Positions 5,637 to 45,593 are shown, numbered from the stretch's first letter. The stretch: 64,000 nucleotides of DNA from Dehalococcoidia bacterium (GCA_965207995.1 OZ242299.1:788863-852862); one strand, 5' to 3'. The notes: generated by a model not told the origin, from the letters alone. Numbers and translations are program-made.

Positions 5637-5706
5637 AGCGCCCTGCGGGCGCTCGCGCGCCTAGCGGCGCGCGCCCTCTCTCAAGTCTCCCCCAGAGGGG
5701 GAGAGG
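5637..5706. repeat. REP-like GC-rich palindromic element, type A (three consecutive hairpins)
   Basis: AGCGCCCTGCGGGCGCT / CGCGCGCCTAGCGGCGCGCG / CTCTCAAGTCTCCCCCAGAGGGGGAGAGG, each an inverted repeat. Near-identical copy at 12871-12940 and reverse-complement copies at 43285-43353 and 45531-45593. Confidence 0.7.
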
Positions 5707-5824
5707 CTTAAGGCGCTCCCCCAAGGGCCTCCCAGGAGCGAAAGGGGCGCTTTCTGATACAATGGCTTGCAAACCTGGAACGCCGAAGCCATCGGTGTCC
5801 CTCCTTCGAGCGCACATCGTCCCC

Positions 5825-8269
5825 ATGCCGCCGACGTACGAACCGCGCGCCATTGAAGAGAAGTGGCGCCGCCGCTGGGACGAAGACCGCCTCTACCACG
5901 CCCCCGACGATGACGCGCGCCCCAAGTGGTACGCGCTCACGATGTACCCGTACCCCTCGGGCGACCTGCACATCGGGCACTGGTACGGCTACGCCCCCCA
6001 CGACGCCTATACCCGCTTCATGCGGATGCGGGGCAACAACGTTATGTCGCCCATCGGCTTCGACGCCTTCGGGCTTCCGGCCGAGAACGCGGCGATCAAG
6101 CACGGCGCGCACCCCCTGCAGTGGACGATGGCGAACATCGAGCGGATGCGCGGCCAGCTCCGCACGATGGGGACCACGTTCGACTGGGACCGCGAGATCG
6201 TCTGCTGCCTGCCGGAGTATTACCGCTGGAACCAGTGGTTCTTCCTGAAGTTCTACGAGAAGGGTCTTGCCTACCGCGCCCACGCTCCGGCGAACTGGTG
6301 CCCCGGCTGCCAGACGGTGCTGGCCAACGAGCAGGTCAAGGACGGCCGCTGCGAGCGCTCCGACGACGTGGTCGAGCGGCGCAACCTCGAGCAGTGGTTC
6401 TTCCGCATCACCGACTACGCCGAGGAGCTGCTGGACTTCGGCGGGCTCATCGATTGGCCCGACAAGATCAAGACGATGCAGCGCAACTGGATCGGCCGCA
6501 GCGAGGGGGCGCGGCTGACCTTCGACCTTTCCCACCACGGGATCGAGACGAAGGAGATCGAGGTCTTCACGACCCGCCCCGACACCGTCTACGGCGTCAC
6601 GTTCATGGCCCTGGCCCCTGAGCACCCGCTCGTCGAGCAGCTGACCGCCCCCGAGCGGCGCGCCGAGGTCGAGGCCTACGCCCGACGGGCCCGCGCCGAG
6701 ACCGAGATCGACCGCATGTCCACCGAGCGGGAGAAGACCGGCGTCCCCATCGGCGCCGACTGCATCAACCCGTTCAACGGCGAGCGCGTCCCGATCTACG
6801 CCTCCGACTACGTCCTGCTCGGCTATGGGACGGGCGCGGTGATGGGCGTCCCCGCCCACGACCAGCGCGACTTCGAGTTCGCCACCAAGTACGGCCTGCC
6901 GATCAGGGTCGTCATCTCGCCGCCCGACTGGGACGGCTCCCCCCTCGACGAGGCCTACCTTGAAGAGGGCGTCATGGTGAACTCGGACCACTTCGACGGC
7001 ACCCCCGGCGCCGACGCCATCGACGCCGTGACTAGCTTCGCCGAGGCCAAGGGCTTCGGGGAGCGCGCCGTCACCTACCGGATGCGCGACTGGCTCATCT
7101 CGCGGCAGCGCTACTGGGGAACGCCGATCCCCATCGTTTACTGCGACGGCTGCGGCACGGTCCCCGTACCCGAGGACCAACTGCCGGTGCTGCTGCCCGG
7201 CGACGCCGAGTTCCGTCCGACGGGCGAGTCGCCGCTGACCCGGCACGAGGGCTTTCTTTACGCCGACTGCCCTCGCTGCGGGGGGCCGGCGCGCCGCGAG
7301 ACCGACACGATGGACACCTTCGTCGACTCGTCGTGGTACTTCATGCGCTACGCGAGCCCGGACTACGCCGACGGCCCCTTCGACCCTGCGCTCGCCAAGC
7401 AGTGGGCCCCCGTCGACCAGTACACCGGCGGCGCCGAGCACGCCGTCATGCACCTGCTCTACGCCCGCTTCTTCACCAAGGCGCTGCGCGACCTCGGCAT
7501 CGTCGACTTCGGCGAGCCGTTCCTCCGTCTCTTCAACCAGGGGATCATCCTCGGCGAGGACCACGAGAAGATGAGCAAGAGCCGGGGCAACGTGGTCAAC
7601 CCCGACGACGTGGTCGCCGCCTACGGCGCCGACGCGGTGCGCGCTTTCCTCATGTTCATCGGCCCGTGGGACCAGGGCGGCGCGTGGAGCCCGACGGGCA
7701 TCCAGGGCATGTCGCGGTGGCTTAACCGGGTCTGGGCGCTGGCCGCGCGCGACCCCGCATCACTTTCCGGCTCCGCCAACGGCGGCGGGCTGGAGCGGCT
7801 GCGCCACAAGACCATCCGCAAGGCGACCAACGACCTCGACCGCTTCCAGTTCAACACGGCGCTGGCGGCCCTGATGGAGTACTCCAACGAGCTGCAGCGC
7901 GTCTGGGACTCGGGCGCGGTGGACGCGGAAACCTGGCGGCGCGCCGTCGAGACGCTGATCACCCTGCTCGCGCCGATGTGCCCCCACGTCGCCGAGGAGC
8001 TGTGGGAGCAGTCGGGCCGGGAGTACAGCGTCCACGGCCAAGCGTGGCCGACATGGGACGACGCCATCGCCGCCGACACCGAGATCACCCTGGTGGTGCA
8101 GGTGAACGGGAAGATGCGCGACAAGCTCACCGTCGAGGCCGGCATCGGCGAGGAGGCGGCCAAGGAGCTCGCCTTCGCCAGCGAGCGCGCCGCCTCACAC
8201 GTCGCCGACAAGACGGTGCGCAAGGTCATCTACGTCCCCGGCAAGCTGGTCAACATCGTCGTCGGATAG
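5825..8269 (+). CDS. leuS: leucine--tRNA ligase
   Basis: Class I aaRS with HIGH motif (PYPSGDLHIGHWYGY) and KMSKS motif (KMSKSRGN), CP1 editing and Zn-binding inserts. Start placed at MPPTYEPRAIEEKW (atg 5825), which matches the canonical LeuS N-terminus; the track ORF begins 63 nt upstream at 5762. Confidence 0.9.
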   Translation: MPPTYEPRAIEEKWRRRWDEDRLYHAPDDDARPKWYALTMYPYPSGDLHIGHWYGYAPHDAYTRFMRMRGNNVMSPIGFDAFGLPAENAAIKHGAHPLQWTMANIERMRGQLRTMGTTFDWDREIVCCLPEYYRWNQWFFLKFYEKGLAYRAHAPANWCPGCQTVLANEQVKDGRCERSDDVVERRNLEQWFFRITDYAEELLDFGGLIDWPDKIKTMQRNWIGRSEGARLTFDLSHHGIETKEIEVFTTRPDTVYGVTFMALAPEHPLVEQLTAPERRAEVEAYARRARAETEIDRMSTEREKTGVPIGADCINPFNGERVPIYASDYVLLGYGTGAVMGVPAHDQRDFEFATKYGLPIRVVISPPDWDGSPLDEAYLEEGVMVNSDHFDGTPGADAIDAVTSFAEAKGFGERAVTYRMRDWLISRQRYWGTPIPIVYCDGCGTVPVPEDQLPVLLPGDAEFRPTGESPLTRHEGFLYADCPRCGGPARRETDTMDTFVDSSWYFMRYASPDYADGPFDPALAKQWAPVDQYTGGAEHAVMHLLYARFFTKALRDLGIVDFGEPFLRLFNQGIILGEDHEKMSKSRGNVVNPDDVVAAYGADAVRAFLMFIGPWDQGGAWSPTGIQGMSRWLNRVWALAARDPASLSGSANGGGLERLRHKTIRKATNDLDRFQFNTALAALMEYSNELQRVWDSGAVDAETWRRAVETLITLLAPMCPHVAEELWEQSGREYSVHGQAWPTWDDAIAADTEITLVVQVNGKMRDKLTVEAGIGEEAAKELAFASERAASHVADKTVRKVIYVPGKLVNIVVG

Positions 8270-8303
8270 CGCGGGCGGCCTCTACCAGCCCAGCAAGGCA
8301 CCG

Positions 8304-8753
8304 ATGCAGAGCGACGCCAAGACGGTAGCGGAGTACCTGGCCGAGCTCGACGCCGACAGGCGCGAGGCCATCGGGGCCGTCCGCGGCGTCATCCTGGACA
8401 ACCTTCCAGACGGCTACGAAGAGATGATGCTGTTCGGCATGATCACCTACGCCGTGCCGCTGAGCGTGCTCGCCGACACCTACAACGGCCAACCGCTCAT
8501 GTATGCCGCGCTGGCGTCGCAGAAGCGGCACATGGCCGTCTACCTCACCAACGTCTACGCCGACGGGTCCACCGAGGCCTGGTTCCGCGAGCGCTACCTG
8601 GCGACGGGCAAGCGGCTCGACATGGGGAAGTCGTGCGTCCGCTTCAGGAAGCTCGACGACCTGCCGCTGGACTTGGTCGGCGAGGCCATCGCCAGGACGC
8701 CCATCGACGAGTTCGTCGAGCTATACAGGGCGTCGAGGTCGGGCCGCAAGTAG
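8304..8753 (+). CDS. DUF1801 (YdhG/YdeI-like) domain protein
   Basis: 149 aa; family resemblance only, no catalytic motifs; function unknown. Confidence 0.6.
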   Translation: MQSDAKTVAEYLAELDADRREAIGAVRGVILDNLPDGYEEMMLFGMITYAVPLSVLADTYNGQPLMYAALASQKRHMAVYLTNVYADGSTEAWFRERYLATGKRLDMGKSCVRFRKLDDLPLDLVGEAIARTPIDEFVELYRASRSGRK

Positions 8754-45337: not shown

Positions 45338-45382
45338 GCGCTGCCCTCCTTACTTTGCGGGGTCGCGGAGCGCTTGCATTGT

Positions 45383-45480
45383 ACCTCCCTCCCTCCGGGA
45401 GGGACTGAGGGCGGGAACGTCCCCGCGGGGCGGTCTTCCCCCTCTCTCGCTGGGAGAGGGTTGGGGTGAGGGCGGGGAGC
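45383..45480. repeat. REP-like element, type C copy 2 plus extra hairpins (TACCTCCCTCCCTCCGGGAGGGACTGAGGGCGGG-AACGTCCCCGCGGGGCGG-…CCCTCTCTCGCTGGGAGAGGG…)
   Basis: Shares the GAGCGCTT-[CCTCCCTCC…GGGAGGGACTGAGGGCGGG] core with 37238-37296. Confidence 0.6.
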
Positions 45481-45530
45481 CGGGAGGGGTGCGCCAACGT
45501 CAACGCTGCCTGCGACCCCATGTTGCTAAC

Positions 45531-45593
45531 GTCTCCCCTGGGGGAATTGAGAGAGGGCGCGCGCCGTCAGGCGCGCGGGCGCCCGCAGGGCGT
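45531..45593. repeat. REP-like element, type A (reverse orientation, fourth copy)
   Basis: GTCTCCCCTGGGGGAATTGAGAGAGGGCGCGCGCCGTCAGGCGCGCGGGCGCCCGCAGGGCG, about 85% identical to 43285-43353. Confidence 0.65.

Follow-up and report, generated by a model that had tools for sequence, protein, structure and literature searches.

Scattered through the intergenic DNA of a 64,000-nt stretch of a Dehalococcoidia bacterium genome (GCA_965207995.1, OZ242299.1:788863-852862; hereafter the window, with coordinates counted from its first letter) is a family of short GC-rich palindromic repeats, and the question raised by this locus is what kind of element they are. A first-pass annotation had described at least nine copies, of types A, B and C and a short variant, as chains of hairpins of the REP/BIME or MITE-like (miniature inverted-repeat transposable element) kind, belonging to a family that it did not recognize. 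Our analysis points to a different class: the repeats are probably the Dehalococcoidia counterpart of the Escherichia coli BoxC/PIT intrastrand triplex repeats, and not classical transposase-driven REP elements. We have high confidence that they have the sequence architecture of BoxC/PIT-type class II intrastrand triplex repeats, here diversified and chained into directional mosaic arrays; we have moderate confidence that the elements act as DNA and that their three-strand complementarity is under selection.

A three-block repeat unit with a mirrored purine tail

Reading of the intergenic regions, together with a fuzzy motif scan of the whole window, placed all nine listed elements at the coordinates and in the orientations first described, in five intergenic regions. 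A gene map based on GC content at third codon positions (GC3) and on Pfam put every copy outside the GC3-defined genes. The copy number, types, orientations and intergenic location given in the first-pass annotation were thus borne out, as was its picture of hairpin chains; types B and C2 prove to hold two units each, which brings the total number of units to 12. The core pattern matched six times in the window, against 0.16 matches expected, and a strict search, defined as a pyrimidine-arm hairpin of at least 7 bp with a mirrored third block, returned nine true units, compared with 0.017 in 60 Markov simulations; the chance expectation for the window units is about 0.02. In these nine strict units, stem length is 7-9 nt, the two loops measure 3-7 and 3-4 nt, and matched triads number from 7/8 to 9/9. 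The only other pyrimidine-arm hairpins of at least 6 bp in the 64 kb are three unrelated ones, all within open reading frames (ORFs).

Confinement to the window was an outcome that the first-pass annotation had named as telling against a repeat family, and copies were in fact found in five related genomes. A scan of a genome collection with the A/B core as query gave, among the matches listed, at least 84 stretches, about 76 of them from five related 'Dehalococcoidia bacterium' metagenome-assembled genomes (MAGs), one of which is a 3.58-Mb single chromosome (OZ253453.1); the listed matches in other taxa were few, single and coding-looking. The window has about 68% GC and is 85-92% identical to the syntenic parts of several of these related loci (numbered with the prefix L below), in which about 200 units were found among the matches listed.

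Alignment of the nine elements, together with a search for hairpins whose 5' arm is all pyrimidine, gave a common order of parts: after a short leader, the last letters of which are CC, come a 7-9-nt pyrimidine arm, a loop of 3 nt, the purine arm that pairs with the first, a linker and a purine tail. The linker is (C/T)TG, sometimes with one T more, and the tail is a mirror image of the purine arm. The arm GGGAGAGA, for instance, is followed after ctg by the tail AGAGAGGG, which matches the reversed arm at 8/8 positions; the corresponding arms, linkers and tails of the other window classes are GGGGGAGA, ttg and AGAGAGGG (7/8), GGGAGGGA, ctg and AGGGCGGG (7/8), GGGAGAAGA, ttg and AGATGAGGG (8/9), and GGGAGAGGG, ttg and GGGTGAGGG (8/9). 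The related loci added the arm/tail classes GGGGGAAA/AAAGAGGG (six loci) and GGGAGAAGG/GGATGAGGG (two loci). This three-block anatomy was missed by the first-pass annotation, which had counted 'TGAGAGAGGGC' as a plain part of the shared core; it is not a spacer but a third block that co-varies with the hairpin.

The mirror rule was examined in nine purine-arm classes drawn from the 76 loci and the window. Tail and reversed arm agreed with a mean identity of 0.887, compared with 0.40-0.71 in shifted registers, and only 8 of the 362,880 permutations of tails among classes reached 0.887, all of them swaps between classes with identical tails. At the three bases adjoining the linker, the mirror match was 27/27. 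Moreover, two changes between classes involve all three blocks and keep the mirror register: TCTCCCCC/GGGGGAGA/AGAGAGGG to TTTCCCCC/GGGGGAAA/AAAGAGGG (six loci), and TCTTCTCCC/GGGAGAAGA/AGATGAGGG to CCTTCTCCC/GGGAGAAGG/GGATGAGGG. When T*A-T triads are allowed, units B and Bu2 and the BoxC-like class (discussed later) are perfect triplex motifs. Two other readings of the tail were discarded: it is not in general a G-quadruplex motif, four G-tracts being present only in types C and C2, and it is not a Shine-Dalgarno sequence (Weinberg's remark on the whalefall-1 motif, also discussed later), as GC hairpins and no start codon come downstream.

The hairpins themselves are well conserved as helices. 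In an alignment of 73 distinct type-A copies, the three helices had 89.9% of cells paired, compared with 36-62% in slid controls, and compensatory exchanges were present at the fifth pair of the unit hairpin (CG to UA or the reverse, 14 sequences) and at the bases of the two adjoining GC hairpins, hpB (GC and AU, 18 sequences) and hpA (AU and GC, 20 sequences). Across the related loci, stems are at least 90% conserved and loops are variable. Folded as single-stranded DNA with ViennaRNA, which has no triplex model, element A3 reached -31.9 kcal/mol (z -4.9), and either strand folded equally well.

Relation to BoxC/TMECO

In a class II intrastrand triplex, one strand carries a pyrimidine block, a purine block and a reverse-Hoogsteen purine block, which combine in G*G-C, A*A-T and T*A-T triads (Holder 2015, PMC4666352); intrastrand triplex-forming (ITxF) sequences are defined in that work by stems of 6-15 nt, at most one mismatched triad and loops of 1-6 nt. 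The block order of our units, their stem and loop lengths and their number of mismatched triads (at most one) are those of a class II ITxF sequence. One such sequence is TMECO, known in the 1990s as the BoxC repeat and described by Hoyne/Maher 2000 as the PIT element; its class II pattern is CCCTCNCCC N3-6 GGGNGAGGG N3 GGGNGAGGG (PMC4666352). It has been reported from 262 proteobacterial genomes, always lies in intergenic DNA, has stems that are more conserved than its loops, and is most commonly found in a form with one mismatched triad; it has no association with mobile elements, its loci are rearrangement-prone, and an earlier study cited there had detected neither promoter nor terminator activity (PMC4666352). 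Further, the E. coli TMECO forms a triplex in vitro, as shown by circular dichroism and nuclear magnetic resonance (PMC4666352).

The exact TMECO pattern has 16 copies in the related Dehalococcoidia loci. Within the window, only the unit at 45438-45472 nears it, with two mismatches, both in the pyrimidine arm, and the other 11 units have different stems. In one Dehalococcoidia subclass, the three 9-nt blocks (CCCTCTCCC / GGGAGAGGG / GGGTGAGGG) are identical to those of BoxC: when the BoxC copy between lldD and trmL was set against the Dehalococcoidia copies, all three stem blocks agreed and the loops alone differed. When the whole set of complete E. coli genomes was searched by blastn with one copy, 157 of them had a match in unannotated intergenic DNA, 36-38 nt long and about 89% identical. 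A known family has therefore been matched where the first-pass annotation recognized none, although the match holds at the level of the class II triplex motif, with a single subclass showing the exact BoxC/TMECO pattern.

The likeness extends beyond sequence. Both sets of repeats have the block order Y (pyrimidine), a loop of 3-6 nt, R (purine), a loop of 3 nt and a mirrored R, and both are always intergenic, have less conserved loops, commonly carry one mismatched triad, have no known associated transposase and occupy unstable loci. They differ in that (i) there are at least seven stem versions in Dehalococcoidia but one in E. coli; (ii) Dehalococcoidia arrays are co-oriented, include GC hairpins and reach about 10 units, whereas E. 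coli has singles or inverted A+B pairs; (iii) density is 12 units in 64 kb here, compared with 23 in the 4.6-Mb MG1655 chromosome; (iv) a compositional strand bias is present here and absent from E. coli; and (v) the host phylum is Chloroflexota, whereas TMECO was reported from Proteobacteria. What is new here is the number of co-varying versions, their density, the directional arrays, the strand bias, the targeting by an insertion sequence (IS) and the link to whalefall-1.

Resemblance to whalefall-1

The window had no Rfam match at gathering thresholds, and ARAGORN found no tRNA in it. In E-value mode, the units tested gave sub-threshold matches to RF01762, whalefall-1, of 21.7, 18.4, 17.5 and 16.5 bits, against a gathering score of 37; three of these, scanned at a size of 491 nt, had E = 0.003-0.06. 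The alignments run through hairpin 1, delete the 23-nt hairpin 2 in each case, and resume in the purine tail. The units thus resemble whalefall-1 but are not members of it.

Whalefall-1 entered the literature as a small RNA (sRNA) rather than a motif of DNA (Weinberg et al. 2010, PMC2864571). In its 16 seed sequences, nevertheless, arm and tail follow the mirror rule of our units, and the stem comes in three versions (RF01762; PMC2864571, Additional file 5): UCUCCCC/GGGGAGA with the tail AGAGGGAGG, UCCCUCC/GGAGGGA with AGGGUGAGG, and CCUCUCC/GGAGAGG with GGGUGAGG. The seeds also form divergent pairs 35-50 nt apart, as do the E. coli A+B pairs. Whalefall-1 shares with our units the pyrimidine-arm hairpin followed by a conserved purine tail ending in GAGG(G/A)C, and differs in having a 23-nt second hairpin in place of YTG and an AT-rich host. 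It is therefore possible that the whalefall-1 'sRNA' is a triplex motif of DNA in which the second loop holds a hairpin.

Distribution and array dynamics

Mapping against gene ends, which the first-pass annotation had proposed, established a strictly intergenic family: in the related loci, 190/200 units lay outside coding-like ORFs and the other 10 near ORF ends. Occupancy was 27/79 for convergent intergenic regions, 15/61 for divergent and 52/266 for co-directional ones. Neighboring units are co-oriented, with 78 tandem pairs, 5 tail-to-tail and 6 head-to-head, and five of the six head-to-head pairs are a single hairpin scored on both strands.

Arrays grow by local tandem duplication, and gain and loss between relatives are rapid. 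The tandem elements B1 and B2 of the window are represented by one copy in the orthologous locus L058, which instead (4360-4500, minus strand) repeats the leader by itself, in four to five tandem copies of 30 nt. Other loci hold three 234-nt composite copies (L064, 4560-5110), three 43-nt units (L011, 83-190) or about five 336-nt composites (L030, 4880-5700). The window block 45383-45650, comprising C2 and A4, is replaced by 63 unrelated nt in L058. In L009 (about 2190-2245) and L022, whose flanks are 96.7% identical, a 54-nt module consisting of a hairpin and a 'GCGCAAGGGTCTCC' leader-type hairpin, with CAG at both ends, is present in one and absent from the other. In the orthologous regions compared, this CAG...CAG microrepeat was the only one flanking a module, and the flanks were otherwise not duplicated; no target-site duplication was seen in the orthologous intergenic alignments, the window being too diverged from L058 and L064, with arrays swapped as blocks. 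Because these comparisons revealed neither terminal inverted repeats nor target-site duplications, the suggestion that the repeats are MITE-like did not hold. They share with MITEs that they are small, non-coding, repeated and structured, but no matching autonomous element was found for them, and the ends of the IS481-family element described next, the only IS seen, are not theirs.

REPs are insertion targets for some IS, and the present units likewise are targets of an IS and are not carried by it. The IS in question is an IS481-family element of about 1.35 kb that encodes a 404-aa transposase with rve, rve_3, HTH_28 and LZ_Tnp_IS481 domains. It has six copies (L030 3498-4868, L039 4155-5492, L038 6701-8000, L042 7340-8000, L023 1933-3322 and L009 785-2170), four of them in one genome and mutually 99.5-99.9% identical. 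Five of the six interrupt the purine tail, the third block, of an A-type unit, and 6 bp (AGAGGG) are duplicated at the insertion; an empty site is found in L022 at about 3290-3310.

A scan of viral contigs with the A/B core gave 18 matches (L205-L222) to one conserved stretch in low-GC contigs, mostly of 3-8 kb. We judged these unrelated to the family, as the pyrimidine arm is absent and a GC hairpin, GGGCGGGCAGCGACTCGTCGCGCC, adjoins.

Unit orientation is biased toward the locally C-rich strand

The Y-R-R' strand lies on the locally C-rich strand at 49 loci and on the other at 18. With the units themselves masked, the preference was 46 versus 18 loci (p = 6e-4), and four of the five genomes showed the trend. 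In this lineage, third codon positions are strongly C-rich, the GC3 skew of the coding strand being about -0.20. When the skew was corrected for this by averaging plus- and minus-strand genes, its correlation with unit orientation was r = -0.49 (30 versus 14), compared with r = -0.11 for gene orientation. Along the complete chromosome, block skew and unit orientation mostly flip sign near 0.1 Mb and 1.6 Mb, with few exceptions. In the window, cumulative GC skew has its maximum near 6 kb and declines steadily from there onward, the two minus-strand copies lie at near-zero or positive skew, and the plus-strand copies lie at negative skew. The leading strand is usually G-rich in bacteria; if it is so here, the purine-motif strand would avoid the lagging-strand template.

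A predicted three-strand fold and its alternatives

In the mechanism that we propose, one strand would hold the pyrimidine block Y, its Watson-Crick purine partner R and, after YTG, a second purine block mirroring R. Once the strand becomes single, Y and R would form a hairpin, and the third block would fold back antiparallel to R in the major groove to make G*G-C, A*A-T and T*A-T triads. In the lineage, this motif has come to exist in at least seven stem versions and is chained one-way with GC-only hairpins, and at times a GTAG palindrome, into mosaic intergenic arrays. The fold would probably form only transiently, during replication, transcription or repair; the elements would encode no transposase of their own, and the fold would be what selection or a spreading process sees. 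That so many versions exist, and that they co-vary, suggests selection on the three-strand fold itself. Three-way co-variation, with at least seven versions here, three in whalefall-1 and identical stems in E. coli, raises the possibility that what is selected in living cells is the folded Y.R*R triplex, and the strand bias raises the possibility that its action is on DNA made single-stranded by the replication fork; we hold this more specific proposal only tentatively, and on balance doubt it.

Several observations weigh against the triplex account. It leaves the movement of copies to new loci unexplained. Types A (A*G-C) and C (C*A-T) carry one non-canonical triad, the predicted minimum-free-energy DNA fold of type B takes the tail as a Watson-Crick partner, and low sequence complexity means that, in symmetric arms, the mirror register falls together with the alternative Watson-Crick one. 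Owing to the shared descent of the arm classes, permutation p-values overstate their independence, and the strand bias was measured against local composition rather than a mapped origin, at loci chosen for carrying the motif, orthologs among them. For the E. coli element, no such strand bias was found, and an in vivo dimethyl sulfate footprint showed no stable triplex (PMC4666352).

The reading of the first-pass annotation makes these repeats classical REP/REPIN elements, which a RAYT (an HUH Y1 transposase) encoded elsewhere would move in single-stranded form by cut and paste; it seems to us improbable. Much of it is in accord with what we saw: the repeats and REP/BIME or REPIN elements alike are short GC-rich intergenic palindromes that form mosaic clusters, vary between strains and are targets of specific IS; their hairpins keep the stems and vary in the loops, close relatives differ in copy content, and an orientation bias with respect to strand composition is the behavior of single-stranded DNA transposons. 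The same arrays, moreover, hold GTAG-tagged palindromes. The intergenic hairpin chains, conserved stems and fast turnover of a REP/BIME-type repeat therefore stand, but its tag and its inverted pairs are missing: triplex units have neither GTAG nor CGTC, starting instead with ...CC and ending with ...GGGC, and clustered units are co-oriented, not inverted. Their non-palindromic third block, furthermore, co-varies with the stem. A RAYT, for which the first-pass annotation had proposed a search, was not found in 700 kb of window and lineage loci, in which tblastn with IS608 TnpA and E. coli RAYT queries and a scan for HUH plus Y-NP motifs detected no Y1 gene; RAYT genes are usually single-copy. 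The E. coli BoxC, too, has been reported without a link to mobile elements (PMC4666352). The GTAG palindrome family (GTAGGGGC..., GTAG-GGGCGATTCGCGAATCGCCC and variants) is itself frequent, with 107 occurrences in the related loci and one ATAG copy in the window. The palindrome is also very widespread in metagenomes, a scan with it giving 120 stretches (L085-L204) from organisms of 30-70% GC; in several contigs it adjoins or lies inside Y1_Tnp-like genes (L163, 44.6 bits; L155, 25.7 bits), and within some of these RAYT-like ORFs the palindrome (GTAGGGGCGATTCGCGAATCGCCC and variants) encodes in-frame VGAIRESPL-like peptides. As triplex units co-occur in only about 4/120 of the stretches, the two families are separable, and the RAYT-type system belongs to the GTAG palindrome, which merely shares arrays here.

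That the units act as RNA, either as a small RNA related to whalefall-1 or as 3'-untranslated-region hairpins that protect mRNAs or end transcripts, we consider unlikely. Each unit tested gave a whalefall-1 match, the stems carry compensatory changes, and occupancy is highest in convergent intergenic regions, all of which would suit such a role. Yet every whalefall-1 score falls under 37 bits with the second hairpin missing, no T-tract follows the hairpins, and neither terminator-like nor promoter-like sites were found at the elements. A unit-level sense bias of about 2:1 with respect to transcription disappeared when intergenic regions were counted, the co-directional ones having 26 sense and 26 antisense arrays, and wobble-type mismatches were not strand-specific (G.T 17 versus A.C 11). 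Purine-motif triple helices, finally, do not form in RNA (literature quoted in PMC4666352), which would leave the third block unexplained. The remaining proposal, to which we give very little credence, is that the tail is an alternative Watson-Crick partner of the pyrimidine arm and 'CC' leader, forming a two-state slipped hairpin, or else a protein-binding purine box. In type B the predicted minimum-free-energy DNA fold does pair CCTCTCTC with the tail GAGAGAGG, and leader plus arm are nearly mirror-symmetric, so that many classes fit both readings. The class TTTCCCCC/GGGGGAAA/AAAGAGGG, however, matches at 7/8 in the mirror register and 4/7 in the alternative one; compared with type A, the difference in its tail falls at position 2, where the mirror rule places it, whereas Watson-Crick pairing would place it at position 4. 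Together with the fall in identity in slid registers, this class led us to reject alternative pairing of the tail. The mirror rule is also kept in the whalefall-1 seed, where a 23-nt hairpin replaces the linker, and a dimeric protein would be expected to read direct or inverted repeats rather than mirror repeats.

If the proposal of a triplex selected in living cells is right, the fold could serve as a programmed site of pausing or recombination, or could be the structure recognized by an enzyme that processes single-stranded DNA and spreads the units, and whalefall-1, an 'sRNA' in Rfam, would belong to this class of DNA elements. In E. coli BoxC, co-variation is unreadable because the sequence is almost invariant; the present lineage supplies diverged versions in which all three blocks change together, along with copies at very high density, directional arrays, a strand bias and an IS whose target is the third block. 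The in vivo relevance of intrastrand triplexes would thereby become testable by comparative genomics and simple biophysics. The triplex account would also link three things that have been described separately, namely E. coli BoxC, the whalefall-1 RNA motif and the Chloroflexota repeats. In annotation, the arrays are best masked as repeats, without small-ORF or sRNA calls.

Elements of the window and their surroundings

The elements are flanked by housekeeping genes, the neighboring pairs being acyl-CoA dehydrogenase and LeuRS, SDR and ETF, SecDF and a CDF transporter, RuvB and a luciferase-like monooxygenase, and a luciferase-like monooxygenase and a CoA ligase. Element A1 (5637..5720, minus strand) lies in the divergent region between acyl-CoA dehydrogenase and LeuRS. 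It consists of the leader GGGAGCGCCTTAAGCC (5705-5720), the triplex unit TCTCCCCC-tct-GGGGGAGA-cttg-AGAGAGGG (5674-5704), and the GC hairpins hpB, CGCGCGCC-gcta-GGCGCGCG (5654-5673), and hpA, AGCGCCC-gca-GGGCGCT (5637-5653), all on the minus strand. A2 (12871..12938, minus strand) has the same parts, with its unit at 12908-12938 (third block 7/8), hpB at 12888-12907 and hpA at 12871-12887. Beside it on the plus strand are a spacer block, the 'GGTTGGAAGCGGGTGGAG' module (12939-12993), which lies upstream of many A units in related genomes, and the short variant, a degenerate head-to-head partner unit, S (ATCTCC-tct-GGGAGAGG-ctg-AGAGGGC, 12994-13020). The composite of spacer and unit S (12939..13020 in the window) is found at 14 places in the related loci.

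The other elements are on the plus strand. C1 (37236..37275), between SecDF and the cation-efflux gene, is made up of the leader GCTTTAAACC and the unit TCCCTCCC-cct-GGGAGGGA-ctg-AGGGCGGG, with a third block of 7/8. B1 (42903..43011) has a leader and two units with a small hairpin between them: TCTCTCCC-tct-GGGAGAGA-ctg-AGAGAGGG (42917-42946, 8/8), CGGAGG-tcc-CCTCCG (42960-42974) and TCTTCTCCC-cac-GGGAGAAGA-ttg-AGATGAGGG (42979-43011, 9/9 counting T*A-T). B2 (43076..43180) is a tandem duplicate of B1, with a shorter unit at 43088-43116, the hairpin at 43129-43143 and the second unit at 43148-43180. It is followed by the degenerate copy (ATAG) of the separate GTAG-tagged palindrome family, ATAG-GGGCGACC-cttgt-GGTCGCCC (43235..43259), which is the REP proper and lies outside any triplex unit, and by A3 (43273..43353), with the leader GCGCACCTCAAACC, the unit at 43287-43316, hpB at 43317-43336 and hpA at 43337-43353. 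C2 (45376..45472) holds two units, TCCCTCCC-tcc-GGGAGGGA-ctg-AGGGCGGG (45386-45415) and the BoxC/TMECO-like CCCCCTCTCTC-gct-GGGAGAGGG-ttg-GGGTGAGGG (45438-45472). A4 (45531..45594) comprises a decayed first hairpin and tail (45531-45557), hpB (45558-45577) and a decayed hpA (45578-45594).

Other repeats are also present in the window. A strong sigma-70-like site, TTGACA-18-TAATAT (47094-47123), precedes four tandem repeats of about 70 nt (47208-47487), three of them 81-99% identical, in an 830-nt stretch that has no Pfam match and is partly conserved in L058; these repeats had no Rfam match and no excess folding energy. The largest direct-repeat families of the window belong to a minus-strand group at 17617-25750 and 25990-29223, made up of two giant adjacent ORFs (1968 and 805 aa) composed of Calx-beta repeats, whose periods are about 340 and 670 nt, and a 1077-aa VWA-domain protein that follows them. 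Near the N-terminus of a family-5 solute-binding protein (49213-51147), at least 11 tandem 18-nt repeats (49324-49593) encode a hexapeptide linker of the P-E-A-T-A-M type. A two-domain PBP-like gene contains an internal duplication of 849 nt with 88% identity (39776-40924), and two neighboring paralogous Amidohydro_2 genes (55321-58065) are 81% identical over 300 nt.

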